NCBI GenBank assembly: GCA_027318865.1
Contig: DAHVOJ010000003.1
Span: 10,025-74,024, forward strand
Direction: 5' to 3'
Length of the DNA: 64,000 nucleotides
DNA from: a bacterium
Lineage (GTDB): Bacteria; SZUA-79; Acidulodesulfobacterales; Acidulodesulfobacteraceae
Position 1 is the stretch's first letter. Every line of letters begins with the position of its first letter. The notes beneath the pieces are model-generated. The model had not been told where the DNA came from. It did no database searches and saw nothing but the letters and a program-made list of their open reading frames with translations. A program made the position numbers and the translations under genes. Below, piece by piece: positions 45,441 through 64,000 of the stretch.

Positions 45441-45461
45441 GTTTTTTTATCTTTTATTCTT

Positions 45462-46643: not shown

Positions 46644-46656
46644 AATTCAAAATTTT

Positions 46657-47625: not shown

Positions 47626-47644
47626 ATTATCCAGCCCTCCTCTT

Positions 47645-48286: not shown

Positions 48287-48300
48287 CGCTTTACTTTAAT

Positions 48301-48927
48301 TTAATTAAACGTAAACGTTAAATTTCCCTGAAAGTTAGAATTATTTGCCGAAGCGGCATTTCCGTCGAATAGATCGCTTAAGCAGTTCTGTCCGCTACCT
48401 ATATTAAAAACGGGACCGCCGCCGGCATTAACGCCTGAAATCGAATTTTCTAAAGAATTGCATATGTTTAATGCCTGAGCGTTAGTCATCTGAGGAGCGT
48501 TTATACCTATTACGTAAATATATTGCCCCGGATTTGAATTTGTAGAAATCTGATAACCGGCAACAAAACCGGCATTCGGGGGTATGACGTTATCCCCGCT
48601 GACAGTCCACGACGAAGGAAGCAGGTTATCTTCCTGCATAGCATAAGGAAGAGAAATGCCTGACGGCGGAATAATGCTTCCTCCGTTTACCTGCATATAA
48701 GAATTTACGGCTGATTCTAATTTTATAACGGATTGAACAGTTGCCGTAACGTTGGAAGAACCTATTAACCCGTTATAAACCATAAGTCCGCCTGCAGAAA
48801 GTATTCCTACGACTATCATTGCGACTATAATTTCCATCAGCGTAAAACCGCCGTTATTTTTTTTCGATTTTCCCTTATTTTGACTCAGGCTTTTGTTTTG
48901 ATTCCTGCTCTGTTTTAGCTTTAGCAT
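48301..48927 (-). CDS. Prepilin-type (pseudo)pilin with long leader
   Basis: Canonical class III signal ...NNGG/FTLMEIIVAMIVVGILSAG after a basic leader of about 26 aa. Confidence 0.75.
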   Translation of the reverse strand: MLKLKQSRNQNKSLSQNKGKSKKNNGGFTLMEIIVAMIVVGILSAGGLMVYNGLIGSSNVTATVQSVIKLESAVNSYMQVNGGSIIPPSGISLPYAMQEDNLLPSSWTVSGDNVIPPNAGFVAGYQISTNSNPGQYIYVIGINAPQMTNAQALNICNSLENSISGVNAGGGPVFNIGSGQNCLSDLFDGNAASANNSNFQGNLTFTFN

Positions 48928-48982
48928 ATTGTTGCCCCTCCTAAATTTAATTAAATTTAAATTTTTATATATCGGTAATTTA

Positions 48983-50260
48983 TTAATAGTTTGCCGACAG
49001 ACCGACCATCCCCTGAATAAGCGGCAGAAATAAAGAGAAAAACATCAATAACAGAAAAAATACTACGCCGGTCATCGCCAAGAAAAACAGCCCTTTGGTG
49101 AATATTTTCATATATCTGTCCGATTTATCCTTAAATTCGCCCGACAATCTTAAGACCGTTTCCGATAAAAAACCTCCTATTTCGGCATATCTTATAGATT
49201 CGACAACGTCTTCGGATAAAAAATTTGCTTTATATATCGATTCGAATAGCGAGGCTCCCTTCATCAAGTCTTCATAAACCGATTTGAATTTATTTCTAAA
49301 ATAAGTTTTAGAGGTGTTTTTGCCTAAATAATTAAATACGGCGTTGACGGTAACGCCTGACGAAACCATTAATGAAAATTGATAAAATATCCAGTTTAAA
49401 TACCCGTAATTTATGATATTTCTTATTTGCGGAATATTTTGTATAAAAGAAAACGCCTTCGTTTTGATTCCGGATAAATCGGCCATAAAAGCGGCAAAAA
49501 TAGACGCGGTAAAGATTATGCAATATACAAATATATTTTTTAAATATTTGAATAATCCCAAAGTATATAGAGTTGACTCCGGAATATGAGGAAATTGTTT
49601 AAAAAATATAGAAAAAGCCGGAACTATATAATACAGAAATACGGAAAATGCAACAAACAGCAATAAAAACAAAAATAACGGGTAAGCTAATATCCCTATA
49701 ATATTTTTTTTATAAATATTTTTTGTTTCGAAATATTCCGAAATTTTCAAAAAAGCTTCCGAATAATCGCCCGTTGATACTGCTAAATCAAGCAATGACA
49801 GAACTATTTCTTCGAAATTATTTAATGCAAAAATTTTCTTGACGCTTTCGCCCCCGTCTATTAACTCTAGACAATTTCTTATAAATTTTTGCCTGTTTTT
49901 AATTTGAGATTGCCTGTGATTATAATAAAGCCGTTTTGCCGCATATAACAAATCAAATTTCCCTATATATTCCGGCTTCGCAATATCTTTATTCATATAG
50001 CCTAAAGCCTTGCTTACGGAACCGGTAGATTTAACAAGCTGATAGAGTTCGTTAAAAAACATCGAAAGTTCGGCGTCTTTCATGCCGGCATTCGATATGG
50101 GACGCAATAGATCTAAAAATATATTGGGTAAAATAACGGAGGGCATATAGCCTTCTTCTAAAATTATCGATTCTGCATCCGATAAACTGCCCGCCTTAAT
50201 ATTTTTTATTAAACTTTTGCCTTCGGGGGTATAAAACTTTATCAAATAATTTTTTAACAT
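48983..50260 (-). CDS. GspF/PilC-family inner-membrane platform protein
   Basis: 425 aa, two-repeat T2SSF-like layout with three hydrophobic segments, located directly after the ATPase gene. Confidence 0.7.
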   Translation of the reverse strand: MLKNYLIKFYTPEGKSLIKNIKAGSLSDAESIILEEGYMPSVILPNIFLDLLRPISNAGMKDAELSMFFNELYQLVKSTGSVSKALGYMNKDIAKPEYIGKFDLLYAAKRLYYNHRQSQIKNRQKFIRNCLELIDGGESVKKIFALNNFEEIVLSLLDLAVSTGDYSEAFLKISEYFETKNIYKKNIIGILAYPLFLFLLLFVAFSVFLYYIVPAFSIFFKQFPHIPESTLYTLGLFKYLKNIFVYCIIFTASIFAAFMADLSGIKTKAFSFIQNIPQIRNIINYGYLNWIFYQFSLMVSSGVTVNAVFNYLGKNTSKTYFRNKFKSVYEDLMKGASLFESIYKANFLSEDVVESIRYAEIGGFLSETVLRLSGEFKDKSDRYMKIFTKGLFFLAMTGVVFFLLLMFFSLFLPLIQGMVGLSANY

Positions 50261-50271
50261 ATAATTACGAT

Positions 50272-51948
50272 TTACCTCGACAGGTTAAAATAAACGGCGG
50301 GATCTATCTCCCCAATAAGTAATTTATTAAATGCCTGAATTTTTAAAGATTCAAAACCGGATAAATTTATCAACAGGGACTCTAAAGAAGACGGATTAAA
50401 TAAAATATTTAAATCTCTATATATTTCTTCTCTTGCCGCATAGTTAAACTCGGCAATTTCGATAAGAGGTTTTCTTTTATCGTATCCGGTGCCGCCGCAC
50501 CTATCGCAACTTTTTTCTCCTCTTACGAAAATCGAATCCGGATCCGTAAATTTTTCTGAATTATTCATTTTATACGTTACTTCCACGGACGATCTTACAT
50601 CCTGCATAAGAGCATTTTTGTAAATCGACGGTAATTCTTCGAAATAAATTTCTTTTTTACATTCGGAACACAATGGATTATATAGCCTCTGCGCGGTAAC
50701 AAATCTTAAAACGGAAAACAATTGAACGGCATCTATATTTAAAGATTTAAACCTTCCGAATATCGACAGCGAAGAATTTGTGTGAAGCGTCGTAAGAACG
50801 AGATGTCCGGTTTCAGCCGCTATCAATGCATGTTTTGCAGTAGTTTCGTCTCTAATTTCCCCTATCATCATGATATCCGGTTCGCTCCTCAACATTACAC
50901 GGACGGCTTCCGAATAACCGAAATCTTCCGATATGCTCATTTGCGTTATATTAGATTCGCGCAGTTCAATTTCTACTGGGTCCTCTATGGTTAAAATAGT
51001 GCTTTTTTTCTGCGACAAAAGTTTCAGCATTGCATAAAAAGTCGTTGTTTTTCCGGATCCCGTAGGTCCGGTAGCGATAATTAGCCCATGCGGATGGATA
51101 TAAGATTTCTTTAATAAACTCGCTTTGTCTTCGGTAAACCCTATAGATTTAAAATCAAATACTTTGTTCAGACCGTGAATTCTAAGAACTGCTTCGAAAA
51201 GCGTTAACTCCTTGTCTAATTTGGAAGAAATAGGTAAAAATGCGACTCTTATGCTTACCCTTAATCCTTTATAAAAATTTGAAACAAATATAAATTTAGC
51301 ATCAAGCCCTTCCCCTCTTTTCAAAGTTATCTGGCAATTTGCGGCAATTATATTTATTATTCTCTGTCCCGATTCTAAACTGACCGCTCTTATATTTTCC
51401 TGATTAATCTCGCCGTCCATTATAATCATATAAAAATTTTCCGACCTCTTAATTCTCAAATTGGGCGATCCTTTTAACAACGCAATTTCAATTGCCTCAT
51501 TTAAAATTTCTTTTTCCGAAAATTCTTTATTGTTTATAAATATTCCGTTAAGAGCTTCGTAAATTTTTCTTTTTGTAGAAAACCCTACTTTAAATGCTTT
51601 AAAATTTTCGTCGAAAGCCATCCTTTCCGATAAAGCGGCGGTAATTTCACTGCAAATTATATAACGAACATCGCCTTTTCGTGCGGCTACCGCAGGAATA
51701 TCGTAAAGCATACCGAAACCTAAGTTTTCATTTTCTTTTTTGTCTATATGCAATGAACTTAAATCGTTAAAAAAATCTCTGCCTGAATTGTGAGCGAGAT
51801 AAACTGCGACATCGAAATCGGTAACGTAGCCGCCGTCCATTAAAATTTCGCCCAGCCTCTTTTTTCCTATAGACTGCACAAAAAGAGCGTCTTTCAACTG
51901 CTCCTCCGTTATCTTTCCTTTTGATATAAGATATTCGCCTATTTTCAT
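50272..51948 (-). CDS. GspE/PilB-family secretion ATPase with MshEN-like N-terminal domain
   Basis: Walker A GPTGSGKTTT, Asp box, Walker B and His box region, tetracysteine CSEC...CDRCGGTG, N-terminal tandem RLGxx(L/I) motifs. Confidence 0.9.
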   Translation of the reverse strand: MKIGEYLISKGKITEEQLKDALFVQSIGKKRLGEILMDGGYVTDFDVAVYLAHNSGRDFFNDLSSLHIDKKENENLGFGMLYDIPAVAARKGDVRYIICSEITAALSERMAFDENFKAFKVGFSTKRKIYEALNGIFINNKEFSEKEILNEAIEIALLKGSPNLRIKRSENFYMIIMDGEINQENIRAVSLESGQRIINIIAANCQITLKRGEGLDAKFIFVSNFYKGLRVSIRVAFLPISSKLDKELTLFEAVLRIHGLNKVFDFKSIGFTEDKASLLKKSYIHPHGLIIATGPTGSGKTTTFYAMLKLLSQKKSTILTIEDPVEIELRESNITQMSISEDFGYSEAVRVMLRSEPDIMMIGEIRDETTAKHALIAAETGHLVLTTLHTNSSLSIFGRFKSLNIDAVQLFSVLRFVTAQRLYNPLCSECKKEIYFEELPSIYKNALMQDVRSSVEVTYKMNNSEKFTDPDSIFVRGEKSCDRCGGTGYDKRKPLIEIAEFNYAAREEIYRDLNILFNPSSLESLLINLSGFESLKIQAFNKLLIGEIDPAVYFNLSR

Positions 51949-51963
51949 AAAAAAATTCCCCTC

Positions 51964-53691
51964 TTATTTTATTACTTCAGGCGTCAGCATAATCAGCAAA
52001 TCTTTTTTTTGATTTGAATCGTTTATCGATTTAAACAAGTTTCCTATCAGTGGAATTTTAGACAACAACGGAATTCCATAGGTATTTTTAACTTTATCGG
52101 TAGTAAGTATCCCTCCTACTAATATAGTAGAACCCGATTTTACGTTTACCGTATCGGAAAAACTTTTAGATTCTATTACGGGATTGCTGAAACTTTCTCC
52201 TCCTACAGAAAAAGATTGGTATCCCGTAATCGAATTATCGATTAAACTTAAGGTAACGGAAACGGAATCGTCTTTAAAATCGATGTGAGGAGTAAAAGAT
52301 ATAGAAAGACCGGACTGCACCTGAGATATAACCGGATAAGTTTCTGTTTGCGACAGGCTTAACGTCATTGTTTGGATACTCGAAACATAAGGCGTTATCG
52401 TTCCCGACGAAATTAGCCTTGTCTGACCGTCCATTAAAACAAGTCTTGGTTGTGATATTACATCGACGGAACCCTGAGTCTTAAGAGCGTTTAAAATTGC
52501 GCTATTGCTGCCTGAGCCGTTAAATCCTATATATGGAGTGTTTGAGATATTGTTTCCGGATGCAAACTGCGCCGAAACTGATACCGAATCCACACCTAAA
52601 ACATTTGATTTAAACGCTTGATTGAATAGTAAATTCCAGTTTATACCCGCCTGAAATCCTTTATTTAAACTTACGTCGATTACCTCGACTTTTAAGAAAA
52701 CCTGTTTTGAAAGAAACTTATTTATTCTTTTTATATATGCCGCAACTTCATTTACGTTGGAAACCCTGTCTTTAACCCATATCAATCCGTCTTTGGGATT
52801 AATAAAATATTTTCCCTTTTCAGTCAGCATTTCCCTAATATTCCTTGAAATTATAGAGTATAAGCTTTCCGATTCTGAAAGAGTTAACGATAACGAACCT
52901 GAAGGATTGCCGGAATAAGCTCCATTTCTGCCGGAATTTCCGGATGAGTTTATCGAATTGACGGACGACGGAGCGGAAGCGGATTGTCCTGCGTTTCCTG
53001 TTCCGGCAAGCTGTCCTTCGGAAACTCCTTGCGCGTTTCCGTTATTATAGTTTGAACCGTAGCCGTTATTTTCTCCCGCGGTTCCTCCTTGACCCATTTC
53101 CGTCATTCCGACGGTGGACGAGAAAGACGACAACAGATCCGAAACCGGAATATGAAATGTTTTTTCTTCTACCGCATAAACATATAACATTCCGTTTTTG
53201 TAGGTATAAGTAAAACCGTTGGAAATTAAAAGTCCTTTTAGAACCTTATAGAGCGGGACATTTCTGTAATATGCGTCGTTTTTTAATTTGTCGGGAAAAC
53301 CTCTGTAAATAACAAAAGGAACGTCTGTTTCTTGCGACAGCAACATTAATGCCGATTTTATACTGCCTTTTCCCGAAAGCGAAATTTTTTGCCTTAGAAA
53401 ATACGCGATATTAATCTTAATATGATTTTTTTTAATGTTTTTGATGCCGGCAGATATGGATATATGCTTGTTATTAGCGTGTTTTATTATCCGTTTATCC
53501 CTTTTTTTATTGAAATTAATAGGAATGATTTTGGCTCTTTTTATATTTATGCCGTATTTTTTAAACAAATTTTCCCAGTTTTCATTCTTATTCTTATGAT
53601 TATCGGCGCCATATGCTTTTATAGGCTGAACTCTACAAATATCGAACATCGTTAAAATTAATATTAAAATTAATAAATTTTTGTTTTTCAT
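51964..53691 (-). CDS. Secretin (GspD/PilQ family) with G/S/N-rich low-complexity insert
   Basis: Signal peptide. C-terminal secretin block (ISQPRLVLMDGQ..., GIPLLSKIPLIGNLFKS, LLIMLTPEVI). Confidence 0.8.
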   Translation of the reverse strand: MKNKNLLILILILTMFDICRVQPIKAYGADNHKNKNENWENLFKKYGINIKRAKIIPINFNKKRDKRIIKHANNKHISISAGIKNIKKNHIKINIAYFLRQKISLSGKGSIKSALMLLSQETDVPFVIYRGFPDKLKNDAYYRNVPLYKVLKGLLISNGFTYTYKNGMLYVYAVEEKTFHIPVSDLLSSFSSTVGMTEMGQGGTAGENNGYGSNYNNGNAQGVSEGQLAGTGNAGQSASAPSSVNSINSSGNSGRNGAYSGNPSGSLSLTLSESESLYSIISRNIREMLTEKGKYFINPKDGLIWVKDRVSNVNEVAAYIKRINKFLSKQVFLKVEVIDVSLNKGFQAGINWNLLFNQAFKSNVLGVDSVSVSAQFASGNNISNTPYIGFNGSGSNSAILNALKTQGSVDVISQPRLVLMDGQTRLISSGTITPYVSSIQTMTLSLSQTETYPVISQVQSGLSISFTPHIDFKDDSVSVTLSLIDNSITGYQSFSVGGESFSNPVIESKSFSDTVNVKSGSTILVGGILTTDKVKNTYGIPLLSKIPLIGNLFKSINDSNQKKDLLIMLTPEVIK

Positions 53692-54062: not shown

Positions 54063-54139
54063 GCGTTCATAGCTCAGTCGGATAGAGCAACAGCCTTCTA
54101 AGCTGTGGGTCGCAGGTTCGAATCCTGCTGGACGCACCA
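54063..54139 (+). tRNA. tRNA-Arg (anticodon TCT)
   Basis: Hand-folded: acceptor GCGTTCA/TGGACGC, D arm GCTC...GAGC, anticodon loop CTTCTAA, T arm GCAGG-TTCGAAT-CCTGC, encoded CCA. Confidence 0.9.
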
Positions 54140-54173
54140 TTAAAATCAAGACTTTGCGGTAGGTTTGAAATAA

Positions 54174-54374
54174 TTAATTTTTTTGACTGTGGTCGTTTTT
54201 GTGGTCAAAAGATTTTTCAAATTCCGATAGCTCTTCTTCAATATCTTTAATAGCCTGATTAAAGCCTTTTTGAAAAAGGTTTGTAAGTGTAATGTTTTTA
54301 TCGAATTTCTTTAATTCGACATATCTTTCGTGGAGTTCCTTCTTTAACTCAAAATTCATAATTTTCTTAAACAT
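54174..54374 (-). CDS. Small Lys/Glu-rich hypothetical protein
   Basis: 66-aa ORF with ATG and an AGGA-type SD about 7 nt upstream. No motif recognised. Confidence 0.3.
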   Translation of the reverse strand: MFKKIMNFELKKELHERYVELKKFDKNITLTNLFQKGFNQAIKDIEEELSEFEKSFDHKNDHSQKN

Positions 54375-54515
54375 TTTTTTCCTTAATTAAAGTTTTTTGC
54401 CTTTCGCTTTTGCCTTTCTCCCCCTTTGCTAAGGGGGCCGGGGGGTTAGGTGCTTTTAAATTTAAAAGATTTTGACCGCCGTTCCTCGCAATTTTCAGAA
54501 AAGTTATCAACAAAA

Positions 54516-54547
54516 TTAGATAGCCGGCTTTTTGGCTGTCTAATTTT
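54516..54547. terminator. Hairpin with T-tracts on both strands (candidate bidirectional terminator downstream of the CRISPR array)
   Basis: TTAGATAGCC (54516-54525) pairs with GGCTGTCTAA (54534-54543) with one G-U. It is flanked by CAAAA on the left and TTTT on the right. Confidence 0.4.
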
Positions 54548-54752
54548 GCGTAGCATTGATTTTTAGGAAATTTGATAGCGTTTTTTGCTGTCAAATTTCC
54601 GTTAAAAAAATCAATGTTGATTACTTTTCGTTTTGAAAATTGCCTCGCTTTAATGCCTATCGTAAGTCTATAATGTGATAATTCGAGTGCAATAAAATGC
54701 TTTTTACAATAATATAACGTTTTAAGGAAGTGGATAAAATGTACGAAGCACA

Positions 54753-55041
54753 ATCTACAATAGTAGAAATTACATATAACGTTTTAAGATATTGGTATTT
54801 ATTCGATACCTTATTCATCTACAACAGTAGAAATTGTATATAACGATTCAAGATTTAGTTCTTTAACCTTTTGCACCACCATCTACAACAGTAGAAATTG
54901 TATATAACGATTCAAGTCCCGCCTCATGTCCGTATGTATCATATCTACAACAGTAGAAATTGTATATAACGATTCAAGTCAACGAACACCAACCAACTCG
55001 CAAAAATCTACAACAGTAGAAATTGTATATAACGATTCAAG
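54753..55041 (-). CRISPR. Type V-A CRISPR array: 5 repeats of 36 nt, spacers of 26-28 nt, plus a decayed sixth repeat at 54691-54726
   Basis: Plus-strand repeats ATCTACAACAGTAGAAATTGTATATAACGATTCAAG at 54817, 54881, 54943 and 55006, and a 5-mismatch copy at 54753. The reverse complement ends AATTTCTACTGTTGTAGAT, the Cas12a crRNA handle. Confidence 0.95.
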
Positions 55042-55045
55042 AGAT

Positions 55046-55074
55046 AATATATGTTATTTTAAAAGGTTTGTCAA
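55046..55074 (-). promoter_or_regulatory. Putative CRISPR leader promoter TTGACA-N17-TATATT
   Basis: On the minus strand, TTGACA is at 55069-55074 and TATATT at 55046-55051. The -10 ends 4 nt before the first repeat. Confidence 0.55.
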
Positions 55075-55156
55075 TTTTCTTTTAATTTTTAAAGAACGAT
55101 TTTATGACGCTTTCCGGTCGATATTTTCTATAAAGACCGGGGTTTACAAATTACCG

Positions 55157-58100
55157 TTATGAGTTCCCGCCCTGTGCGAATTGCAACCATTCATCGCCGG
55201 ACAACCGCAAATCGACTTTTCTTATATTTTCTGACTGTTTTATTCTGTTAAGCAGTATCAGTCCTTTACGAGCTATATTATAAGCTCCGTTTGCGGCAGC
55301 GTTTTCCGGTAAAGCTTTGTCGTTAGGCTTGCGGCTATCGTAAAATTTTCCTGACTTATCCATTGCTGGCGATATAATAAAATCGCCGTTACGCATTTGA
55401 ACGGTAAGCCTGAATAACGATAAAAGCCTTACAAAAAAATCTTTATCGTTTAGCGACAAAATAAATTCTTCTAAATCGCCTTTATAATCAACTGAGTAAT
55501 CAGAAAATAAATTTTTAAATTCTTTGGTTAGGTCTATTTTTCTAAATTTCGGCTGATTATTATCGTTAAACCTTTCGATTCTTTCGCCGTAAGTATAAAC
55601 CGTCCATTCAGTCCTTGCGCTCTGGATCTTGTCTTTATCCGTAAAATTATCATAATTAAACGTAAATTCAAATAAATTCGTTTTTTCGTTATAGGAGATA
55701 TTTTTAAACTTACCGAAAAAGTCTTTAGATTTATTCACGTTAAAATAACGGGTATCAAATAAATTAACAAAGCCCGTGACAGGGTCTATATCCGTTACTT
55801 TATATGGCGATACGTAAAATATCATTCCGCTTTCTTTTCCTATTCTTTCAAAACTTACGAATTTATTTGCGAGTTGCAAAGGTTTAAGCAGTCCGCCTAA
55901 TTCCTCCGGTTCTTTCTTTTTATCTGCGTAAAAATTAAGCTTATCTATAAGCATTTTCTCGAATTTCTGATAAACAGGTTTTTCTATCGCAGACCTCTCC
56001 CTGATAAAATCATAACTTAAATCTTCCATTGCGCATACTGCGTTATACCTTACCATTAAGGCTGCTATTTTCGATATTACATTACTTAAATAGCCTTCCT
56101 TTAATTCTTTAATATTGCCTATAACGCCCCAATTAACCCTTGCTCCATCCCTTTCTTCGCCTCTTTTTTCGAGTTTTTCCATATAGTTGATATTTTTTCC
56201 GTTATAGCCTTCTATCTCGTTCAAAGAATGTTGTTCTATGATATTACCCGCTGAATCCAAAACGGTAATATAAACTAAATGATTTTCCGCCCTGTGAACG
56301 CCTACGACGTTAATATCGTTAGATTTTATAAAATCCCTACATATATCGTTAATATTGCCGCGATCCGGAGCATTAGGATTTAATGTAATAGGAACGTTAA
56401 ATTGAAACTTATCGAAAGCAAACCTGCGGTCTTTAATTATTGCGTAATTGAATTTACCCTTTAGTTCTTCGGCATGATGTCCGTTTTTCATTATTTCTTC
56501 GGAGTAGTTTAAGGATTTTTTTCTGTAAAACATTTCCGCCCCGCCGTTAAGCTTATAAACGGTATCTTTGAGGTTGCGTTCGTCAAAAAGCATTTTAAAA
56601 TAAAGGGTGTGCAGATTAGGCGTTCCCTTGCTATAAACCGAAAAATCTTTATTATAAATCTTAAATAAATAAACTTTGCCGTCTTTTACGAGTTCGTTGA
56701 TATAGCTTGCTGTTATATCCCTAAAAGTTATGACGTAGCCTTGAGAATCGACGTCATCGTAAAATTCGTTTATTTTTTGGTATTCTTCAGTCGGTCTAAA
56801 ATTAAAATTATAACATGACCATTCGGGATTTTTAGAGATAGATTCTTTGTAAAAATCTATTAACGTATGTAAATCGCCAGTATTAAAATTATCGCCGGCT
56901 TTAAAAGTTCCGTCGTTATATATTCTTATTATTTCATCGGACGGTTCGTATTTAGATTTATTGCCTTCGGCGAAAAAAACTTTTGGCAGCATCATATACG
57001 ATTTCGGCAGTAATTTATATTCCATTTTTTTATATGCGTCTTCGCCGTATTCCGCCGAAATAGCGTTTTTAAAGATTTTATTATGTTCTTTATTTATAAT
57101 GCCGAGATAGTAATAATCGCCTTTACTGAACAATACGGAAGCGTTATCTATTTCTTTATTTACGTCCCATCCCGCTAAAAGCGTGCTGTTGCCGAAGTTT
57201 AGTTTTATTTTTTCTACCGAATACGGTTTTTTAGTGATAAAATTCCGGACTTCGTTATAAAGTTTTACCGCTCCGTCCATGCCGTCAAATATACGGTCGA
57301 AAGACTCGTAAAAAACAAGGTCTTTATCTAAGCCTTCAAAATCGAAAACCTTAAACGTTCTATGTAGAGCTATAATATTATCCATTAAGCCTTTTAAATC
57401 CGGAACGCTGTTTTGGTTATTAATCCATAATTCGTAAGACCGTCTTATATCTGCTACGGTATTTATTATTTTGTTATAGAAAAATTCAAACATAAAGTCT
57501 TTATCGGCGTTAGGTAACGTCGCCTGAACATTTGCAATACTAAAATAGGCTATTTTTAAAAATTCTTTTTCGGGATTTTTAGATTTAGGATTATTCGCAA
57601 TATAATTTTCTAATAAAACGTTCTTTAGAAAGTTAAAATCCTTAAACAATTCGTGGGATAAGTCCGTAAGAAACCTGCTTTTAATATAAATGCCGGTATA
57701 ATCGTAGCTTTTGCCGTCCGGCGCGAATATGTCGGCCGCGGATGCAAGAACGGATTTAATATTATTATAAAATTCGACTACGGCGTTATTCATCGAGTCT
57801 TTATTTTTAAATCCTTCAGTTATCCAAGCAGGAACATTCTTATCGCCCAAAATCTGCTTTTTAAGCTGTTTAAGCATGGGAACGGATTTGCCGTCTAATT
57901 TATTAGACTGACGGAATAAATTTACTTTTTCGTTAAATCCTTGTATTTTTTTGCCGTCTTCTAAGCTTTCTCCGCCTATCATTTTATTATAAAGGTCTAT
58001 GCCTGACTGAGTTAGGGTTTTAGAAAACCATTCGGTAGAAAACATATCCTCGACTTTTTCGCCATTTAATAAAGGCTCTACGGATTTTTTAATATCTTCT

Positions 58101-58699
58101 ATTAATTCGGGATAAGAATTTTTAATAGCGTTAAAATTTTTCTTATTTATGATGAATAAAGGCAGGTTCTCGTGTATTACCCTGTATGCGTGGCTTGCAT
58201 GCTTTTCCTCTGCGCTATAAATATTTTCTCTCGTTTTGTAATAATTTACAAAATAAGTCGTAAAAGTTTTAAATTTATTTATGAGATTTTTTTCTTCTTC
58301 TGTTTTCGCAAATTCAGGAAGTTCTTTGCGAATAAGGTCGGCAGATCCAAGCAGTTTAAATTTGGGATTTTTAGCCAAATAAGATACTACCTCCTTACGC
58401 AGTTTTGCCTTAATGTCGTTAAATTCTTTTTCGTCTTTTTCATTCCTCGGAAAGAGATTATATTTTTCCTCATAAATTAACAAATTTTCTAAACTTAATG
58501 AAACGCCGGCAAGGGATTCATTAATAAAATTTTTAAGCCAAGTGTCTGCAATTTTTTTAACTTTTTTAAAGTCTTCGGCAAGTTTCTCGTCTTCCGTTAA
58601 TATCCCCGCCTTTTCGATATTATTTAACGTGTCGCCTTGCGGAATAAGGCTAAAGCGTAAGGTTTTTGAAGTTGAAAATAAATTAGTAAATGATTTCAT
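55157..58699 (-). CDS. cas12a: Cas12a (Cpf1) orthologue, 1180 aa, with substituted RuvC-I and RuvC-III catalytic Asp residues
   Basis: N-terminus MKSFTNLFSTSKTLRFSLIPQG. Also GWDVNKE, MLPKVFF, LFKIYNKDFSVYSKGTPNLHTLYFKMLFDERNL, AVCAMEDL, EKPVYQKFEKMLIDKLNF, DPVTGFVN, VQMRN, ANGAYNIARKG. AGGAGA SD 5 nt upstream. Cas12a-type array 115 bp downstream. Confidence 0.93.
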   Translation of the reverse strand: MKSFTNLFSTSKTLRFSLIPQGDTLNNIEKAGILTEDEKLAEDFKKVKKIADTWLKNFINESLAGVSLSLENLLIYEEKYNLFPRNEKDEKEFNDIKAKLRKEVVSYLAKNPKFKLLGSADLIRKELPEFAKTEEEKNLINKFKTFTTYFVNYYKTRENIYSAEEKHASHAYRVIHENLPLFIINKKNFNAIKNSYPELIEDIKKSVEPLLNGEKVEDMFSTEWFSKTLTQSGIDLYNKMIGGESLEDGKKIQGFNEKVNLFRQSNKLDGKSVPMLKQLKKQILGDKNVPAWITEGFKNKDSMNNAVVEFYNNIKSVLASAADIFAPDGKSYDYTGIYIKSRFLTDLSHELFKDFNFLKNVLLENYIANNPKSKNPEKEFLKIAYFSIANVQATLPNADKDFMFEFFYNKIINTVADIRRSYELWINNQNSVPDLKGLMDNIIALHRTFKVFDFEGLDKDLVFYESFDRIFDGMDGAVKLYNEVRNFITKKPYSVEKIKLNFGNSTLLAGWDVNKEIDNASVLFSKGDYYYLGIINKEHNKIFKNAISAEYGEDAYKKMEYKLLPKSYMMLPKVFFAEGNKSKYEPSDEIIRIYNDGTFKAGDNFNTGDLHTLIDFYKESISKNPEWSCYNFNFRPTEEYQKINEFYDDVDSQGYVITFRDITASYINELVKDGKVYLFKIYNKDFSVYSKGTPNLHTLYFKMLFDERNLKDTVYKLNGGAEMFYRKKSLNYSEEIMKNGHHAEELKGKFNYAIIKDRRFAFDKFQFNVPITLNPNAPDRGNINDICRDFIKSNDINVVGVHRAENHLVYITVLDSAGNIIEQHSLNEIEGYNGKNINYMEKLEKRGEERDGARVNWGVIGNIKELKEGYLSNVISKIAALMVRYNAVCAMEDLSYDFIRERSAIEKPVYQKFEKMLIDKLNFYADKKKEPEELGGLLKPLQLANKFVSFERIGKESGMIFYVSPYKVTDIDPVTGFVNLFDTRYFNVNKSKDFFGKFKNISYNEKTNLFEFTFNYDNFTDKDKIQSARTEWTVYTYGERIERFNDNNQPKFRKIDLTKEFKNLFSDYSVDYKGDLEEFILSLNDKDFFVRLLSLFRLTVQMRNGDFIISPAMDKSGKFYDSRKPNDKALPENAAANGAYNIARKGLILLNRIKQSENIRKVDLRLSGDEWLQFAQGGNS

Positions 58700-58774
58700 A
58701 AAAGTCTCCTTTTTAACTACCCGCGCCTAAAGCCACAGGCTTCCTGTTTCATCGTATGTTTACTATATCCGATA

Positions 58775-59005
58775 TTATAGATTTTTATAGATGTATGTCG
58801 CAATGACGAATCCTAAAGATCCGAGCCAAGACAATACATAACCGCCTATAGCATTTAAAGTTATCAAAAGCCCGAATTTAGTCCCTTCAAAATGTTTCGG
58901 TGAAAAGCCGGAGTATTTCCCGCCTTGTATGAATAATTCAATGCTCATGAAGAAAAAAAGTATTACTGCCGCATAATAAGCGTAATTTTTAACCTTTTCA
59001 AACAT
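58775..59005 (-). CDS. Small two-TMS membrane protein
   Basis: 76 aa with two hydrophobic helices (YYAAVILFFFMSIELFI and GGYVLSWLGSLGFVIATYI). GGGGG SD. 75 bp upstream of cas12a on the same strand. Confidence 0.5.
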   Translation of the reverse strand: MFEKVKNYAYYAAVILFFFMSIELFIQGGKYSGFSPKHFEGTKFGLLITLNAIGGYVLSWLGSLGFVIATYIYKNL

Positions 59006-59062
59006 AAAACCCCCGTTATTTAATATTAATATTATAAATCTATATCATATCGATATATGATA

Positions 59063-59410
59063 TTAACATAGTTTTTCAAGCTCTTTTACCGCCTTTTGCA
59101 ACGTTTCAAGAACAGCTTCTTTCTTTGCTTCCAGTCCAACATCTTGACTGTGCTTTTTAAGCCTTTCTTCAAGCTCCGCCCTTGCGCCGGTTATCATTAT
59201 ATCGTTGATACTCTCCTTTTCATCAGCGTAGGCCTCTAAGTATTTTTTGAGTTCTATATACAGACTTTCCGGGATTCTTGCGACGAAAGATATTTTCTTT
59301 TCGGCTTTTTTTCTTCCAATCGGCTTTGCTGGCTCGGAAGTTCCCTGCCCCGCAGCTGCTTGATTGACCCACGTATCAGAATTATTTGGATTAGATTTTT
59401 TAATTGCCAT
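59063..59410 (-). CDS. Ribbon-helix-helix-like DNA-binding protein (ParG/CopG-like candidate)
   Basis: 115 aa. Disordered basic N-terminus, then KKISFVARIPESLYIELKKYLEAY, a beta-strand plus helix pattern typical of RHH proteins. Lies downstream of parA. Confidence 0.45.
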   Translation of the reverse strand: MAIKKSNPNNSDTWVNQAAAGQGTSEPAKPIGRKKAEKKISFVARIPESLYIELKKYLEAYADEKESINDIMITGARAELEERLKKHSQDVGLEAKKEAVLETLQKAVKELEKLC

Positions 59411-59475
59411 GTCAATTTCTCCTTTGTATAATATTAATATTAATATATGATACCGATATTATACAATATTTTAAA

Positions 59476-59706
59476 TTATTCGGCACTCTCTTTCTTTTTG
59501 GGAATAACGGTAATGTTCATTATGGGCTGAATAAAATTTTTTAAATTTTCGGCTGTTTCGTTAGATATGTTAAATTTACTGCCATCCAGCATGCAAAGAA
59601 TAAGAGAGTCTTCTTCGTCGTCATAATAAAAACACGATATAGCTTCTCTATTTATATATATTTCTTTATTTAGATCTATTTCTCTATTTTCGATTTTTAA
59701 AAACAT
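59476..59706 (-). CDS. Hypothetical protein
   Basis: 76-aa ORF between parA and the RHH gene. Confidence 0.35.
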   Translation of the reverse strand: MFLKIENREIDLNKEIYINREAISCFYYDDEEDSLILCMLDGSKFNISNETAENLKNFIQPIMNITVIPKKKESAE

Positions 59707-59734
59707 GATATAGTCTCCTTTTGTTAATGTTAAA

Positions 59735-60382
59735 TTATATTAGATTAATTATTTCGTTAAATAAGTCTTTCACTTCCGCCGTAGCCTTATTGTCCGTATT
59801 TAGTTCGCTTACGCCCAAGCCTTCGGATATAGACTTCCTATATACAGCGCGGTCCTTTAGATAGGAACCTAAAATCTTAACGTCCGGAAAGTCTTTGAGG
59901 AACTCAAGCATTTCGTCTTTTTCTTTGGACTTCCAGTTTGCCGTTATCTTGTTTAAGACGACGTATGCCTTTAGTTTTGAGTTAAAAGCCTGTGCTTCCT
60001 GATACAGCTTATATATCTTTTCGAAGCTCCATGCGTCTAACTGGCTCGTTATTAGCGGTATAATAAACTTATCCGATATCAGCATGGACTTACGCATTTC
60101 TATCGAGTCCCTGCCGCCCGTGTCTATCAGGACGATATCAAAACCGCTTTCTAAAGCTTTGACGTCTTTATCAAGAGCGCCGCCTGTTTTCTCTATGACG
60201 ATTATTTCCGGCAAACCCGCAGGATTTTCTCTGCGGGTATTAGAAAACATAGTCGTAGATTTTTGAATATCGGCGTCTATAAGAAGAACCTTTTTTCCGG
60301 ACCCGGCAAATTCTGTTGCAAGGTTAATCGCAATAGTAGATTTGCCAACGCCGCCTTTTTCGTTTCCGATAGTTATAATCAT
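59735..60382 (-). CDS. parA: ParA-family partition ATPase (small, plasmid type)
   Basis: Deviant Walker [29 protein letters not shown]. 215 aa. Confidence 0.88.
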
Positions 60383-60397
60383 TTTTATTCTCCGTCA

Positions 60398-60760
60398 CTA
60401 TACTAATATTTTAAAAATATTTTCGTCATCGTCATATTCATAATCCCGCGCTGGTGCATTATCAAATATTTTATCAACGATAAAATATTTACACTCCTCG
60501 AGATATTCTAAATATTGCGATTTTTTTGCTCTCGGTTCTCCAATATCTTCTTTCCATTCTTTAAACGATAAAATATCGCCATCTTGACCTTGCATAACAT
60601 AAAACCAAATTTCTTCGTCTTTATTTAACCTATGTTGTCCTTTATACAAAGTTTCCCAGACTCCAGATTTATATACTATGTATTCTCTTTCTAGATCTTT
60701 TTCTCTTGAAATTATTTCGTCCGCTATTTCTCTTGCAATTTCTGAAAGTTCTTTTTCCAT
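60398..60760 (-). CDS. Acidic hypothetical protein
   Basis: 120-aa ORF with AAGGAGA SD. First gene after a consensus promoter. Confidence 0.4.
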   Translation of the reverse strand: MEKELSEIAREIADEIISREKDLEREYIVYKSGVWETLYKGQHRLNKDEEIWFYVMQGQDGDILSFKEWKEDIGEPRAKKSQYLEYLEECKYFIVDKIFDNAPARDYEYDDDENIFKILV

Positions 60761-60808
60761 TTTAGTTTCTCCTTTTAATTAAAGTGATATTAATTTAATA
60801 TATCAATA

Positions 60809-60837
60809 TATATATCATAATATTATATCAATGTCAA
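60809..60837 (-). promoter_or_regulatory. Consensus-like promoter TTGACA-N17(TGA)-TATATA upstream of the 120-aa ORF/parA operon
   Basis: On the minus strand, TTGACA is at 60832-60837 and TATATA at 60809-60814. It lies in a 41-nt block (60801-60841) that is near-identical to 61654-61694. Confidence 0.6.
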
Positions 60838-60858
60838 TATCAATTTTATATATCGATA

Positions 60859-61116
60859 TTATATTAAGTTAGAACATTCGTTTGACATAACGTCACGAAG
60901 ACTTATTATTGCGGTATTAAGCATATTATCAACTGATACAATCATTACGTCTCTGCAGTTATCAAAGTCCTCGTCGCTTAAATCTTTATTTGTCAAATAC
61001 AATCCCTTCCCTATTTCTTTAATTTTACTAATCAGTTCCTCTTCATCCCCCCGTAAATTAATAGCTGTAGTTGGATTTAAAACTACCGTTACCGTAATTT
61101 CTTTTTTTGCATCCAT
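60859..61116 (-). CDS. Hypothetical protein
   Basis: 85-aa ORF with AAGGAGG SD. Confidence 0.4.
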   Translation of the reverse strand: MDAKKEITVTVVLNPTTAINLRGDEEELISKIKEIGKGLYLTNKDLSDEDFDNCRDVMIVSVDNMLNTAIISLRDVMSNECSNLI

Positions 61117-61258
61117 TTTTAAGCCTCCTTTGCTTTAAGTTATTATTAAATTTTTTGTTATTGTATATATAGCGAAGTTGCGTTTTAAATATCGCTTTTA
61201 TTTTTCTTGCCTATACATTTATCCCTTAAACCCTGCTTTCCCCGCCTTAAAACGCTTC

Positions 61259-61618
61259 CTACGAAGCCGTTTTTTTATTTTTTCCCCAAATACCTTTAGA
61301 AAACGCTTTTCTTTTAATTTCAAAGGCAAGATTTAAAAATTCGACGACTTCTTTTTTATTCCTGAATCTCTCCTTGGTTACCCCTGCCGGAATATATAAG
61401 TCGTAAAAAATCACCAGCAGGTTTTCCATGCTTTTTATAAAAATCTCCATAACAATAATATCATCCTGATTTTTGAATTCTGCTGTAAACTTATAAATCT
61501 TAAGAAAATTATATAGAAGTTCATAGATATTATTTTTTGCTTTTTTTAACCTGTATTTATATATTTGAAATCTAATATATAAACTTACATAGTCATAAGT
61601 CTTTTTAATTATGCCCAT
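61259..61618 (-). CDS. Hypothetical protein
   Basis: 119-aa ORF, predicted helical, first gene after the second consensus promoter. Confidence 0.4.
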   Translation of the reverse strand: MGIIKKTYDYVSLYIRFQIYKYRLKKAKNNIYELLYNFLKIYKFTAEFKNQDDIIVMEIFIKSMENLLVIFYDLYIPAGVTKERFRNKKEVVEFLNLAFEIKRKAFSKGIWGKNKKTAS

Positions 61619-61661
61619 TATTGCCGCTCCCTTATATTAATATTAATATCTTATATTGATA

Positions 61662-61690
61662 TATATATCACATTATAATATCGATGTCAA
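61662..61690 (-). promoter_or_regulatory. Consensus-like promoter TTGACA-N17(TGA)-TATATA downstream of the relaxase gene
   Basis: On the minus strand, TTGACA is at 61685-61690 and TATATA at 61662-61667. The 16-nt palindrome ATATTAATATTAATAT (61634-61649) follows. Confidence 0.6.
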
Positions 61691-61724
61691 TATCTAAATT
61701 AAATATTAATATCAAAATATTAAA

Positions 61725-64000
61725 TTAATGCAACTGCTGCTGCTCTTGCTCTTGCCTTTGTTCCTGCTGTTCGTGTTCTATCTCTTGATTTTGTTCTTGC
61801 TCCTGTTCCTGCTCTACCGCCTGTTCTATCTGTTCTTCTTTATCTATTTTTGAGACTTCTTCTTCGGTAAGCGCAAACGCAAGATTTTTGACGTTTTCTG
61901 AAAGCTCGTTCCTAAAGTCTTCGGTTTCTTTTGCAAACTCGATATTTTCTTTGAATTTCTCAACTTCGACTTCAGTTCCGTAAATCTTAATTTCATCCGT
62001 CGATCTCGTGCCTGCGACGTAAAACTTTTCCTCGAAATTTTCGGAATAAGCGCCGCTATTTAACGAATACAAGGTTTTATTGACGGTCTCGCCCTGACTC
62101 TTATAAGTCGTCAAAGCATATCCCAAATCGAAATTTTTATATTCTTCCGGATTAAAAATTACTACGTCGCCGTTTTCTTTTATTGCCGTGATATTACCGG
62201 CTTCGCCTATCGATTTAACGGTCGCCAGTTCGCCGTTATTGACGTTAAGATTTTTATCATTTTTCAGGAAGACGATTTTATCGTTCTCGGCCACTTCGAT
62301 ATCTTTCTCGATATATACCTGTATATTATCTTTGTTCTTATTTGTAAGATTGAAGCTTTTTTCTTCGCCGTCTTCGGCCTGAAGCTTTAGAATGTTTTTG
62401 TCTTTATCGATGTCTTCTACCGTATAAACCTGATAAGTTTTATCCGCTATGATTTTTTCACCAGGATTATACGATTCGACAAATCCGGCGTTTTCGGCCG
62501 ATATAACCCTATTTTCGTAAACTTTAAAATTTTGTCCGTTTTTGCCGATTAGTTCCTTTTCTTTTAAGCCTTCGACAATAAGAGAATTCAAAGCGTTCCT
62601 TTCTAAGTTAGTATCAACTAAAATTAATGTATTTTTCGATACGTCCTTAAAATACTCTTCCTTGATAGCATTAAACTTTGCAGTTAAGGCCTCAAGGTTA
62701 TTAGTCTCGCTCTCTTTAAAGCTTATGACGTTTCCAGCGCTCTCTATTTTTTCGAAAGCTCCTTTAAAATCTTTGCCGGCTAAAGTCAAGGCAATACGTT
62801 CCTGAGTATCATTATGATAGCGGACCGGAATATCCATATTAGTATATACGCCGAGCCCAGACAATTTGGACGCTTCCGAAGCTTCTTTAAAGAAATCGCC
62901 GCGCTCGATAGACTTAAACTGTTTTTCGTCGCCGATATAATTTATTTTTGAAGCGTCCAAAGAATTAAGGAATTTAGCCTGTTTGTCTGAAACCATCGAC
63001 GATTCATCTATGAAGAGAACCGTTTTTTCGTCGAATGTAATTTTGCCGTTTTCGACGAGATTTTGAAGCCTTGAAATAGTATAAATGTTTTTTATATTAG
63101 AATCTTTTAAGACTTCTGTAGCCTTGCCGGTATGGCTCGCTCCTATGACTGTATAACCTTTATTTTCGAGAAATTCATTTATTAAATTTAAGGCGTTTGT
63201 TTTTCCGGTTCCTGCGTCTCCCTGAATAATGTTAAATTTATATCTACTCGACAATATATTATGACCCATCGAGACTTGAGACTCCGTTAAGGTTTTGCTG
63301 TTTTTTTCCTGCCAAGTTTCTATCTTTCTACTAATATCTTTCTCTGTGAAATAGGTTTTTGATTCCGCATTTTGCAAAATAGTATTGTAATTCTGCTTAA
63401 TATCCCGCAAAACTTCTTTAGTCGTAAAATATTTCGTAGAATAAGTATGTTTTACCTCTACCACATCTTTATTCGATTTAATTGCAGAAGCAATTACCTG
63501 GACGTCGGTTTTACCAAAATTATGCTTAATAGTTACGTTTTCGGCTTTTTCATATTTATAGGTTCGGTAATTTTCGGTTATGTCCTTAAGCCCTTGCCTT
63601 AGCGCCGCTTTAGTGTTTTTAAACTTTTCGAATTCGCTTTCTTTGGGCTGCGCTATATTATTTTTAGCGGTTTCCACGACGTTATTAAGTTTTTTAAGTT
63701 CTTCATTGGATAGCCTTTGTTCCACGAATTTCTTAGTTTCTTCGTATGTCGGATTATGCTCCTTGCGCTGACGCGTGGCTTTTTCGGCAAGCTGCCTTAA
63801 ATCTTTTTCCGTCATTGTCGGATATTTTTTTCTTAGTTCTTCTACCTTATTATCGATTTCCGCTTGCCTGGTAGAGAACCGCTCTTTTAAATCTTTGAGT
63901 TCTTCGCCTTCAAGCTTAATATCCGTCATAGCCTTAGAGCGGTCGGAGTCTATCGTATAACCCAGCGTTTGCAATTTCTGCGCAAATTTATTCTCCTGTA
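61725..64000 (-). CDS. Conjugative relaxase-associated helicase (TraA/TrwC-type RecD-like domain), N-terminus outside the window
   Basis: Walker A IIQGDAGTGKTN, Walker B LFIDESSMV, TYKSQGETV, AGTRSTDEI. The frame stays open upstream of the track's TTG at 63974 to the window edge. The C-terminus has a Q/E repeat tail. Confidence 0.7.
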   Translation of the reverse strand, partial: QENKFAQKLQTLGYTIDSDRSKAMTDIKLEGEELKDLKERFSTRQAEIDNKVEELRKKYPTMTEKDLRQLAEKATRQRKEHNPTYEETKKFVEQRLSNEELKKLNNVVETAKNNIAQPKESEFEKFKNTKAALRQGLKDITENYRTYKYEKAENVTIKHNFGKTDVQVIASAIKSNKDVVEVKHTYSTKYFTTKEVLRDIKQNYNTILQNAESKTYFTEKDISRKIETWQEKNSKTLTESQVSMGHNILSSRYKFNIIQGDAGTGKTNALNLINEFLENKGYTVIGASHTGKATEVLKDSNIKNIYTISRLQNLVENGKITFDEKTVLFIDESSMVSDKQAKFLNSLDASKINYIGDEKQFKSIERGDFFKEASEASKLSGLGVYTNMDIPVRYHNDTQERIALTLAGKDFKGAFEKIESAGNVISFKESETNNLEALTAKFNAIKEEYFKDVSKNTLILVDTNLERNALNSLIVEGLKEKELIGKNGQNFKVYENRVISAENAGFVESYNPGEKIIADKTYQVYTVEDIDKDKNILKLQAEDGEEKSFNLTNKNKDNIQVYIEKDIEVAENDKIVFLKNDKNLNVNNGELATVKSIGEAGNITAIKENGDVVIFNPEEYKNFDLGYALTTYKSQGETVNKTLYSLNSGAYSENFEEKFYVAGTRSTDEIKIYGTEVEVEKFKENIEFAKETEDFRNELSENVKNLAFALTEEEVSKIDKEEQIEQAVEQEQEQEQNQEIEHEQQEQRQEQEQQQLH

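Follow-up and report, generated by a model that had tools for sequence, protein, structure and literature searches.

We analysed a window of 64,000 nucleotides (64 kb) of contig DAHVOJ010000003.1, from a bacterium of the Acidulodesulfobacteraceae, the right-hand part of which (54063-64000) carries a Cas12a gene with an altered nuclease site, a CRISPR array, and genes of a transferable element. The Cas12a gene, here called dcas12a, lies on the minus strand at 55157..58699 and encodes a full-length Cas12a of 1180 amino acids (TIGR04330 and five Pfam domains). On the same strand follow a leader of 115 nt with a promoter-like site (55042..55156) and the CRISPR array with spacers W1-W5 (54699..55041), the first repeat beginning exactly 115 nt past the dcas12a stop codon. 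Beyond the array is a tRNA-Arg(TCT) gene on the plus strand (54063..54139; found by ARAGORN, Rfam tRNA 73.7 bits), the integration target of the element on its attL side, and at the window's end is a relaxase gene. An earlier note on this DNA, made from the sequence without database searches, had reported a cas12a followed 115 nt after its stop by an array, with no adaptation gene in the 5 kb upstream or the 1 kb downstream, and for cas1, cas2 and cas4 this held across the 64 kb: none of the three genes was present among the Pfam and NCBIfam matches of the open reading frames (ORFs) in the window, and a tblastn search of the whole 64 kb with type V-A Cas4, Cas1 and Cas2 gave a best E value of 0.55. 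The three genes were also absent just beyond the window, in the 2.6 kb supplied by L007, a contig that is 100% identical to the window over their overlap.

The window protein scored 1152 bits on TIGR04330, the equivalog model for Cas12a/Cpf1 (cut-off 300), and matched PF18501, PF21918, PF22222, PF18516 and PF18510, all above cut-off, which represent the REC1, REC2, PI, RuvC and Nuc domains. Its nearest solved structures are Cas12a proteins, and it is 43-50% identical to active Cas12a proteins. The active site was read from alignments to the solved structures ReChb, Lb2Cas12a and LbCas12a, the last of which has the catalytic triad D832, E925 and D1180. The RuvC triad is D-E-D in active Cas12a and H802-E-A1135 in the window protein, in agreement with the dead RuvC site proposed in the earlier note. 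RuvC-I reads VGVHRAENH where active proteins have IGIDRGERH (Asp to His) and RuvC-III reads ENAAANGAYN where they have DADANGAYN (Asp to Ala); the RuvC-II Glu (within MEDLS) and the Arg of the Nuc domain (within QMRNG) are retained. Single Asp-to-Ala substitutions at these positions abolish DNA cleavage in FnCas12a (D917A, D1255A) and LbCas12a (D832A). Judged from these residues, the window protein is a Cas12a homologue by descent but apparently not a Cas12a nuclease, and we refer to it as dCas12a. The stretch GHH...IIKDRRF, which we take to be the WED RNase region from the FnCas12a residues H843, K852 and K869, does not differ from that of the closest relatives that are active.

A homologue search over 5.8 billion proteins and a motif table across 60 homologues placed the window protein in a clade of six together with P0001 (88% identity), P0002 (82%), P0003 (80%), P0005 (72%) and P0006 (62%); no close relatives were found in JGI metagenome contigs. 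In all members RuvC-I carries His or Asn and RuvC-III carries Ala, and they share a change of the lid from FGFKRGRFKV to YDFIRERSAI and of a further motif from YVPAWNTSKIDP to YVSPYKVTDIDP. Outside the clade both Asp residues are kept in 53 of 54 homologues: in P0007 (56% identity) and in 52 of 53 further proteins, which are mostly Campylobacterales-type and Bacteroidales-type Cas12a at 42-50% identity. The exception is P0017, a protein on a 6.2-kb Logan contig that is 48% identical and does not belong to the dead clade: its RuvC-I Asp is replaced by His (IGLHRGERH) and its Nuc Arg by Lys (VQMKNS), with the RuvC-III Asp kept; by sequence it may represent an independent partial inactivation.

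The dead proteins show strong constraint. Pairwise ratios of nonsynonymous to synonymous substitution (dN/dS) within the clade are 0.07-0.10, for residues 1-779 and for the RuvC plus Nuc part alike; dS is near saturation, so these ratios are approximate, but pN lies far below pS, and this result is robust. Among 53 active homologues 297 columns are near-invariant; 271 of these (91%) are retained, and the 26 columns altered in all dead members include the two Asp positions, residues of the lid, and K569M and H768N outside RuvC, the latter (in FQF[H/N]VPIT) specific to the dead clade. By these comparisons the loss of the nuclease site is old and a trait of the clade, and the protein has been kept by purifying selection.

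The array has five spacers, each 26-28 nt long, set between four identical 36-nt repeats (CTTGAATCGTTATATACAATTTCTACTGTTGTAGAT), a degenerate fifth and a truncated sixth. The 3' end of the repeat, AAUUUCUACUGUUGUAGAU, is the canonical Cas12a handle, with a predicted fold of a 5-bp stem and a 4-nt loop; the repeat terminus AATTTCTACTGTTGTAGAT has the handle pattern UCUAC-N4-GUAGA, and the spacer lies 3' of the handle. In the leader, TTGACA-17-TATATT at 55074..55046 ends 5 nt before the first repeat and resembles a promoter by consensus match only, the total of promoter-like sites in this AT-rich region being not above chance.

The earlier note had spoken of a mini-array; the array is not fixed, and at least five variants occur across samples that carry an identical Cas12a protein. 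With the leader end given first, the window, L011 and L033 have W1-W2-W3-W4-W5, L030 and L031 have A1-A2-W1-W2-W3-W4-W5, L032 has A1-W1-W2-W3-W4-W5, L029 has A1-W2-W3-W4-W5, and L012 has W4-W5. The trailer end is constant in all. A constant trailer, additions at the leader end and internal deletions are the classic signature of polarised spacer acquisition. Because the array turns over and the locus has no adaptation genes, spacer acquisition would have to take place in trans.

Arrays also lie directly after the dcas12a genes of sister proteins, with 18 repeats for P0002 and 8 for P0003. The array of 18 repeats (L035:3847-4962) is a composite of two repeat variants, nine of each, and contains one tandem spacer duplication, which suggests either that two arrays were fused or that the repeat changed during growth. 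At the P0005 locus (L009:3763-4184) dcas12a is followed by only two or three degenerate solitary repeats, one of which stands after a 74-aa ORF, and genes with CheW and SocA_Panacea domains come next, a context unlike that of the other members. The P0003 locus is mobile-element DNA too: upstream of its dcas12a lie ParB and, farther off, replication-initiator-like genes, S24 repressors and Fic, and downstream lie a fragment of a coupling protein and a topoisomerase. No cas4-cas1-cas2 was found at the P0003, P0002 and P0005 loci, and no accessory gene conserved upstream of dcas12a was found across the clade.

The most basal member, P0006, which is 62% identical and has Asn and Ala in place of the two Asp residues, differs in that it is followed at once by cas4, cas1 and cas2 (L010:794-6179, from JGI 3300027919). 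That a basal dead protein still has an adaptation module indicates that loss of the nuclease preceded loss of the module, so that the order of events would be nuclease loss, then loss of the adaptation genes and residence on mobile elements. The nearest active relative, P0007, is followed by cas4 and lies beside DUF3987, DUF3991/Toprim and HTH_17 genes (L036:603-10496, from ENA ERZ27233564), a mobile-element-like neighbourhood from the same sample series as the dCas12a element. Candidate donors of adaptation functions in this clade and sample series are the P0006 and P0007 loci.

Targets were sought for the seven spacers of the window array and its variants (W1-W5, A1 and A2) and, in a cross-comparison with all 313 kb of DNA fetched, for the clade's full set of 33 distinct spacers. 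One of these, spacer 16 in the array of L035 (AAGGGACTAAATTTGGGCTTTTGATA), matches window positions 58887..58862, inside the 76-aa ORF upstream of dcas12a, at 25 of 26 positions in the window and at 26 of 26 in the variant L015. The protospacer lies on the minus strand and is flanked on its 5' side by TTTG (58891..58888; the whole site spans 58862..58891), a canonical Cas12a protospacer-adjacent motif (PAM) seen in this one case (n=1). For a 24-mer allowed a single mismatch, we estimate the number of matches expected by chance in the sequence searched at about 5e-6. The mismatch, at window position 58874 (position 14 of the protospacer), is synonymous, with TTC in the window and TTT in the spacer and L015, and could be a neutral polymorphism or a partial escape. 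L035 is the locus of P0002, the dCas12a that is 82% identical to the window protein, and its own upstream gene is unrelated, which argues that spacer 16 is aimed at the element of a sibling and is not a self-match. Because the spacer has the sense of the coding strand, its CRISPR RNA (crRNA) would pair with the template strand, and this is the orientation of best repression by engineered DNase-dead Cpf1 (ddCpf1; PMC5460296), an agreement that as a single case carries little weight. One of the 33 clade spacers thus matches a rival element with a PAM, and the others are unmatched in this small sequence set and in public collections.

The gene at the window's end (61725..64000, minus strand) is the C-terminal 757 codons of a TrwC/MobF-family relaxase-helicase whose N-terminal relaxase domain lies beyond the window end; it matches the NCBIfam models TraA_Ti, TraI and MobF and Pfam AAA_30. 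A full-length copy of 968 aa that is 95% identical (L006) has PF08751 TrwC (2e-54) followed by a helicase domain. The 'RecD-like relaxase helicase' of the earlier note is, by this comparison, the C-terminal part of a TrwC/MobF relaxase. In L007, a TrwB/TraD-type coupling protein of 700 aa (TrwB_AAD_bind, 8e-53) is encoded immediately upstream of the relaxase. From dcas12a outward, all genes lie on the minus strand and encode in order proteins of 76, 115 and 76 aa, ParA, proteins of 120, 85 and 119 aa, and the relaxase-helicase, and this order recurs from relaxase to dCas12a on at least ten short contigs from many assemblies. The co-oriented order of the upstream genes had been given correctly in the earlier note; its three small orphan ORFs, however, are only two when ORFs of 50 aa or more are counted from the relaxase to the 120-aa ORF.

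To the left of the tRNA gene lie enolase, GlmM, GroEL and a secretin/PilB/PilC/pilin cluster of nine genes (44311-53691) that adjoins the tRNA and keeps its order across relatives in Ca. Acidulodesulfobacterium. We rejected this cluster as part of the element, since in related species without the element its neighbours are unchanged; its conservation there marks the left flank as chromosomal. Clusters of GroEL and of enolase at 90% identity include proteins named as Ca. Acidulodesulfobacterium or 'Deltaproteobacteria bacterium', by which the host belongs to that lineage of acid mine drainage. In two related species secretin orthologues that are 72-75% identical stand in the same setting of pilus cluster plus major facilitator superfamily (MFS) transporter, beside the same tRNA-Arg(TCT), and what follows the tRNA differs: L023 has SLAC1 and housekeeping genes, and L024-L026 have a gene with NHL repeats. 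In one of the two species, in L024 (6680-6946) and L025 (2335-2526), a tyrosine integrase of which only a C-terminal piece remains (...HTFASW...LLGHKDIKMTLRYSHL) directly adjoins the same tRNA 3' end, and is left from a different element formerly at this site. The absence of the block in relatives, together with the integrase remnant there, makes tRNA-Arg(TCT) a real integration hotspot, as had been supposed from the position of the block 3' of this tRNA, and the block is not syntenic in these relatives.

A potential concern with this analysis is whether the junction at the tRNA could result from chimeric assembly. This was rejected, since the junction of the window is reproduced in independent assemblies (L011/L028 and L012). 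In L029 and L031 the same element is joined to a tRNA with the D-loop and upstream flank of the L023 type; these flanks are identical to L023 at 52 of 57 and 57 of 62 positions, versus 38 of 57 and 43 of 62 for the window. The L023-type flanks indicate a second host lineage with the element at this same site, which documents movement of the element between Acidulodesulfobacterium lineages in acid mine drainage. Common to the alternative junctions is a 49-nt att core (54091..54139), the part of the tRNA that begins in the anticodon loop and finishes with CCA. The contigs L030 and L033 end 1 nt past this core and L013 starts 16 nt outside the tRNA; contig ends at or beside the tRNA fit branch points of the assembly graph. 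In L032 a 16-mer, CACAAAAACGACCACA, occurs on both sides of the core (1441-1456 and 1685-1700), one copy inside the 3' end of the 66-aa ORF beside the core and the other 131 nt past the core, at the contig end; the two may represent recombinase sites of the arm type, or else a tandem remnant may start here.

The composition of the block also sets it apart: its GC content is 0.340, versus 0.366 for the chromosomal part, and its tetranucleotide distance lies 3.8 standard deviations above that of chromosomal windows of the same size (z = 3.8), windows that themselves feed the reference profile. Taken together, these data support the conclusion that an element of at least 12.5 kb, integrative and either mobilisable or conjugative, has its tRNA-proximal end at 54091-64000 and is inserted in the 3' 49 nt of tRNA-Arg(TCT). 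The proposal in the earlier note that the effector is cargo of a mobilisable plasmid or integrative and conjugative element (ICE), possibly integrated, is borne out by the relaxase, the coupling protein, the tRNA junctions and the empty sites in relatives.

The remaining genes of the block are small. The terminal gene of the element beside the att core is a 66-aa ORF from the ORF list (54174..54374, minus strand), which matches no family and occurs as the exact same protein on nine contigs, each time downstream of the array. The 76-aa ORF that holds the protospacer of the sister array (58775..59005, minus strand) lies 75 nt upstream of dcas12a; it has hydrophobic windows at residues 8-29 and no family match. 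The 115-aa ORF (59063..59410, minus strand) has a basic N-terminal tail followed by helices and is a candidate small centromere-binding or regulatory protein. It had been described as ribbon-helix-helix (RHH)-like, a label that found no confirmation, as no significant family match and no RHH match was found and the AlphaFold2 model has a pLDDT of 53. A 76-aa acidic ORF (59476..59706, minus strand) comes directly after parA, which encodes a small ParA-type partition ATPase of 215 aa (59735..60382, minus strand); this protein matches NF041546 ParA_partition over its full length at 160 bits, under the cut-off of 180, as well as Pfam AAA_31, CbiA and MipZ and phrog_164 (7e-49). The first gene of the parA operon encodes a 120-aa acidic protein (60398..60760, minus strand), its synteny being kept on at least nine contigs, and two orphan ORFs of 85 aa (60859..61116) and 119 aa (61259..61618), both on the minus strand, complete the block.

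AT-rich direct repeats with the box GATATTGACATTGATATAATA lie upstream of the 120-aa/parA operon (60787..60859), and a second AT-rich repeat region with the related box GATATTGACATCGATATTATA lies between the relaxase gene and the 119-aa ORF (61631..61729). Both regions contain a common box of about 21 nt, GATATTGACAT[T/C]GATAT[A/T]ATA, which includes a -35-like TTGACA and may be a shared operator or centromere for the partition and regulatory proteins; the short core TATATCAAT by itself is not above chance. A type Ib partition system would combine a small ParA, a small RHH protein that binds the centromere, and repeats upstream; here the ParA match is below cut-off (160 against 180 bits), repeats lie upstream at 60787-60859, and the 115-aa candidate has no RHH match and a model of low confidence.

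From these observations a reading can be put together that we consider reasonably probable: the locus would provide RNA-guided DNA binding and silencing that is free of a nuclease, is carried by a transferable element, is aimed at competing elements and has its spacers renewed in trans. The array would be transcribed from the leader, and dCas12a would process the transcript by means of its putative WED RNase site. The complex of dCas12a and crRNA would bind targets flanked by TTTV on competing elements without cutting them, and the bound complex would block transcription and possibly replication or transfer. New spacers at the leader end would be supplied by Cas4-Cas1-Cas2 acting in trans, from a complete type V-A locus in the same cell or community. 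The system most likely works like Cas12m or type IV-A3, and would be a type V-A counterpart of these and of Cas12b3. A role in competition between elements, suggested in the earlier note, is supported but not proven by the conserved dead RuvC site and the PAM-flanked sister spacer, whereas control of the element's own copy number or gene expression, suggested along with it, finds no support, there being no self-target and the array turning over.

Several findings weigh against this reading. The cross-targeting is known from a single spacer of a sister system. For W1-W5, A1 and A2 no target was found in the window or the fetched loci with up to 4-5 mismatches, and the search of spacers against plasmids and phages that the earlier note had proposed gave no target for the window spacers, blastn of the concatenated spacers against PLSDB plasmids and GenBank phages yielding no matches or matches at chance level (E about 9-10). 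Eight exact 22-24-mers, including ones from W1-W4, A1 and A2, had no match in IMG/VR, and spacer A1 had none in JGI metagenomes. The alteration of positions outside RuvC, such as K569M and H768N, means that PAM reading or RNA processing could differ from that of canonical Cas12a. A search for type V-A Cas1 homologues found no compatible Cas1 tied to this host. As regards the element, no attR, integrase or mating-pair-formation genes were observed in the part covered, which is the tRNA-proximal end and the 2.6 kb of L007, and the junction in L032, which is identical to the window through the 49-nt core and continues for 147 nt into unrelated sequence that is not tRNA, could be of attP type or a tandem insertion, these 147 nt being all that lies past the core.

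Five other explanations were considered, and are taken here from the least to the most improbable. The interference might end in destruction after all, either because a separate nuclease of the host or the element is recruited or because the altered site (His, Glu) still cleaves or nicks. The equal constraint on the RuvC plus Nuc part and the remainder, and the retention of the RuvC-II Glu and Nuc Arg, are compatible with this possibility, and non-cleaving or inactivated Cas12 proteins have been linked to other nucleases, as in Cas12m with Cas3 and inactivated Cas12 with an IscB nickase (PMC10910872). On the other hand, no nuclease or helicase gene is conserved beside dcas12a in the clade, the upstream genes being unrelated in the window, L003, L010, L035 and L036. 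Two of the three metal-binding carboxylates are lost, and by established mutagenesis of FnCas12a and LbCas12a the loss of one Asp to Ala at these positions is enough to abolish cleavage. We consider destruction unlikely.

Alternatively, dCas12a and its crRNAs could form a fixed regulator that controls genes of the element itself (copy number, transfer or partition) or of the host. A dead nuclease is compatible with pure regulation, dcas12a sits in a maintenance block, beside parA here and beside parB in the P0003 element, and inactivated Cas12 proteins with mini-arrays have been described, such as Cas12b3 on a conjugative plasmid (PMC12669027). The guides do not behave as such a regulator would require, however. 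With up to 4-5 mismatches allowed, neither the window and the element nor the related loci of the chromosome are matched by any spacer, and the sole identified target is on a different element. Spacers are gained and lost at the leader end between samples and a sister array has 18, which is the behaviour of a defence array and not that of a fixed operator guide. A fixed regulatory role is accordingly judged improbable.

A further possibility is that dCas12a is an anti-CRISPR decoy, which would soak up the crRNAs of a resident type V-A system or shield protospacers of the element from host immunity. Its repeat handle is canonical, so crRNAs of a host type V-A system could be loaded, and an active Cas12a followed by cas4 (P0007) is present in the same sample series; an anti-CRISPR role as a mimic has been proposed for a phage Cas9 whose RuvC is inactivated (PMC10910872, PMC12669027). 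That mimic has no array, whereas all clade members with enough sequence have arrays of their own, with up to 18 spacers, that turn over. The basal P0006 retains cas4-cas1-cas2, and a sister spacer against a rival element is unneeded for a passive decoy. These considerations leave the decoy with a small chance of being correct.

The dead Cas12a might instead direct insertion or recombination, comparable to type V-K CRISPR-associated transposons (CASTs). Such a role has been read from a dead Cas12a found beside Rpn-like PDDEXK proteins and topoisomerases (10.1101/2021.08.16.456562), and a topoisomerase lies downstream at the P0003 locus. Neither the block nor the loci of relatives contain a transposase, an Rpn-like gene or a TnsB/C gene, and no spacer matches the tRNA or its flank. 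Insertion at a tRNA 3' end is typical of integration by tyrosine recombinases, and this is the form of insertion found here, with its 49-nt core. RNA-guided mobility is thus very improbable. That the locus is a broken, functionless type V-A remnant hitch-hiking on the element, as the missing adaptation genes, lost catalytic residues and degenerate last repeats might imply, is hardly credible given an intact ORF of 1180 aa, dN/dS of 0.07-0.10 at 62-88% identity, 91% of near-invariant Cas12a positions retained, and leader-end differences between samples with an identical protein.

The nuclease-free silencing of competing elements that we favour can be placed among known systems. Canonical type V-A (FnCas12a, LbCas12a and AsCas12a) belongs to the same family and has the same domain order of REC1, REC2, PI, WED, RuvC and Nuc; the locus shares with it the identical repeat handle AAUUUCUACUGUUGUAGAU, spacers of 26-28 nt and, at the single protospacer found, which a sister array targets, a TTTG PAM. 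It differs from canonical type V-A in the H-E-A triad, the altered lid and the changed YVPAWNTSKIDP motif, in having no adaptation genes, and in its location, which is not a defence locus of the chromosome but a transferable element that has integrated. Inactivation of RuvC has occurred repeatedly in type V, in V-K, V-C, V-M, V-O, V-P and Cas12b3 (PMC12669027).

Another dead Cas12a is the Rpn-associated one (Rybarski et al. 2021, PNAS; 10.1101/2021.08.16.456562), which is likewise metagenomic and located among DNA-processing genes, and in which the RuvC-I Asp (AsCas12a D908) is likewise replaced and the crRNA-processing residues are kept. That protein has D908I, is about 24% identical to AsCas12a, has Rpn-like PDDEXK neighbours and atypical self-targeting spacers, and was read as a possible guide for transposons; here, in a contrast drawn from its description, the changes are D-to-H/N and D-to-A, and we find tRNA integration, no self-targets, and a spacer against a rival element. 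No Rpn-like PDDEXK gene (transposase_31) was found in the window block or among the Pfam matches of the neighbours in L003, L004, L009, L010 and L035.

Cas12m (V-M) and Cas12c (V-C) are non-cleaving type V effectors that combine tight RNA-guided binding with transcriptional silencing (PMC11013384, PMC10442227, PMC12669027), and Cas12m protects by binding and not by cleavage (PMC11013384). Both belong to other Cas12 lineages, Cas12m being much smaller, and silencing by them is experimentally demonstrated, whereas for the present protein we infer it. Cas12b3 of an Actinomyces conjugative plasmid (Makarova et al. 2025, PMC12669027) is also RuvC-inactivated, with a short array and no adaptation module; it is of subtype V-B, and the present system is distinguished by leader-end array variation, evidence of integration and a cross-element spacer. 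Type IV-A3 (Benz et al. 2024; 10.1101/2023.06.23.546257) resembles it in being borne by transferable elements, in having no nuclease and no adaptation module of its own and, as proposed here, in acquiring spacers in trans and in taking part in plasmid conflict, but uses a class 1 multi-subunit complex and a DinG helicase where a single class 2 effector is found here. Among plasmid CRISPR-Cas systems 36% have adaptation modules, versus 88% on chromosomes, and borrowing in trans is thought likely (PMC9071438). The element itself resembles tRNA-integrating ICEs and integrative mobilisable elements (IMEs) with MOBF relaxases in its TrwC relaxase-helicase, TrwB-type coupling protein, ParA, tRNA 3' insertion and occurrence in more than one host background; as an integrase, attR and mating-pair-formation genes, by the last of which an ICE is told from an IME, were not observed, we do not assign it to either type. 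In a literature search of incomplete coverage we met no account of a clade of dead Cas12a that resides on transferable elements integrating at tRNA genes and that combines evolving arrays with spacers against other elements.

A more specific account can be offered tentatively, as a possibility that we rate below the general reading: this lineage of Cas12a would have lost its nuclease and then its adaptation genes, and sibling tRNA-integrating elements in acid-mine-drainage bacteria would now silence one another, including the dCas12a operon of the rival, with borrowed Cas1-Cas2-Cas4. If true, this would be a natural Cas12a-based form of CRISPR interference (CRISPRi), and plasmid warfare of the type IV-A3 kind would have its first counterpart in class 2, type V-A, with sibling elements using dCas12a for incompatibility or exclusion in a non-destructive way. 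Genes are routinely silenced with engineered dCas12a, and the clade suggests that nature reached the same solution; the window protein has 1180 aa, some 20-120 fewer than the proteins of Lb, Fn and As, and may itself serve for CRISPRi. The nuclease-free CRISPR conflict between plasmids known from type IV-A3 and Cas12m would thereby be extended to the best-studied type V effector. The relatives form a graded series, from an active protein with cas4, through a dead one with cas4-cas1-cas2, to dead ones on transferable elements without adaptation genes, and this series makes testable the order of steps by which an immune nuclease may have become a weapon of mobile elements.

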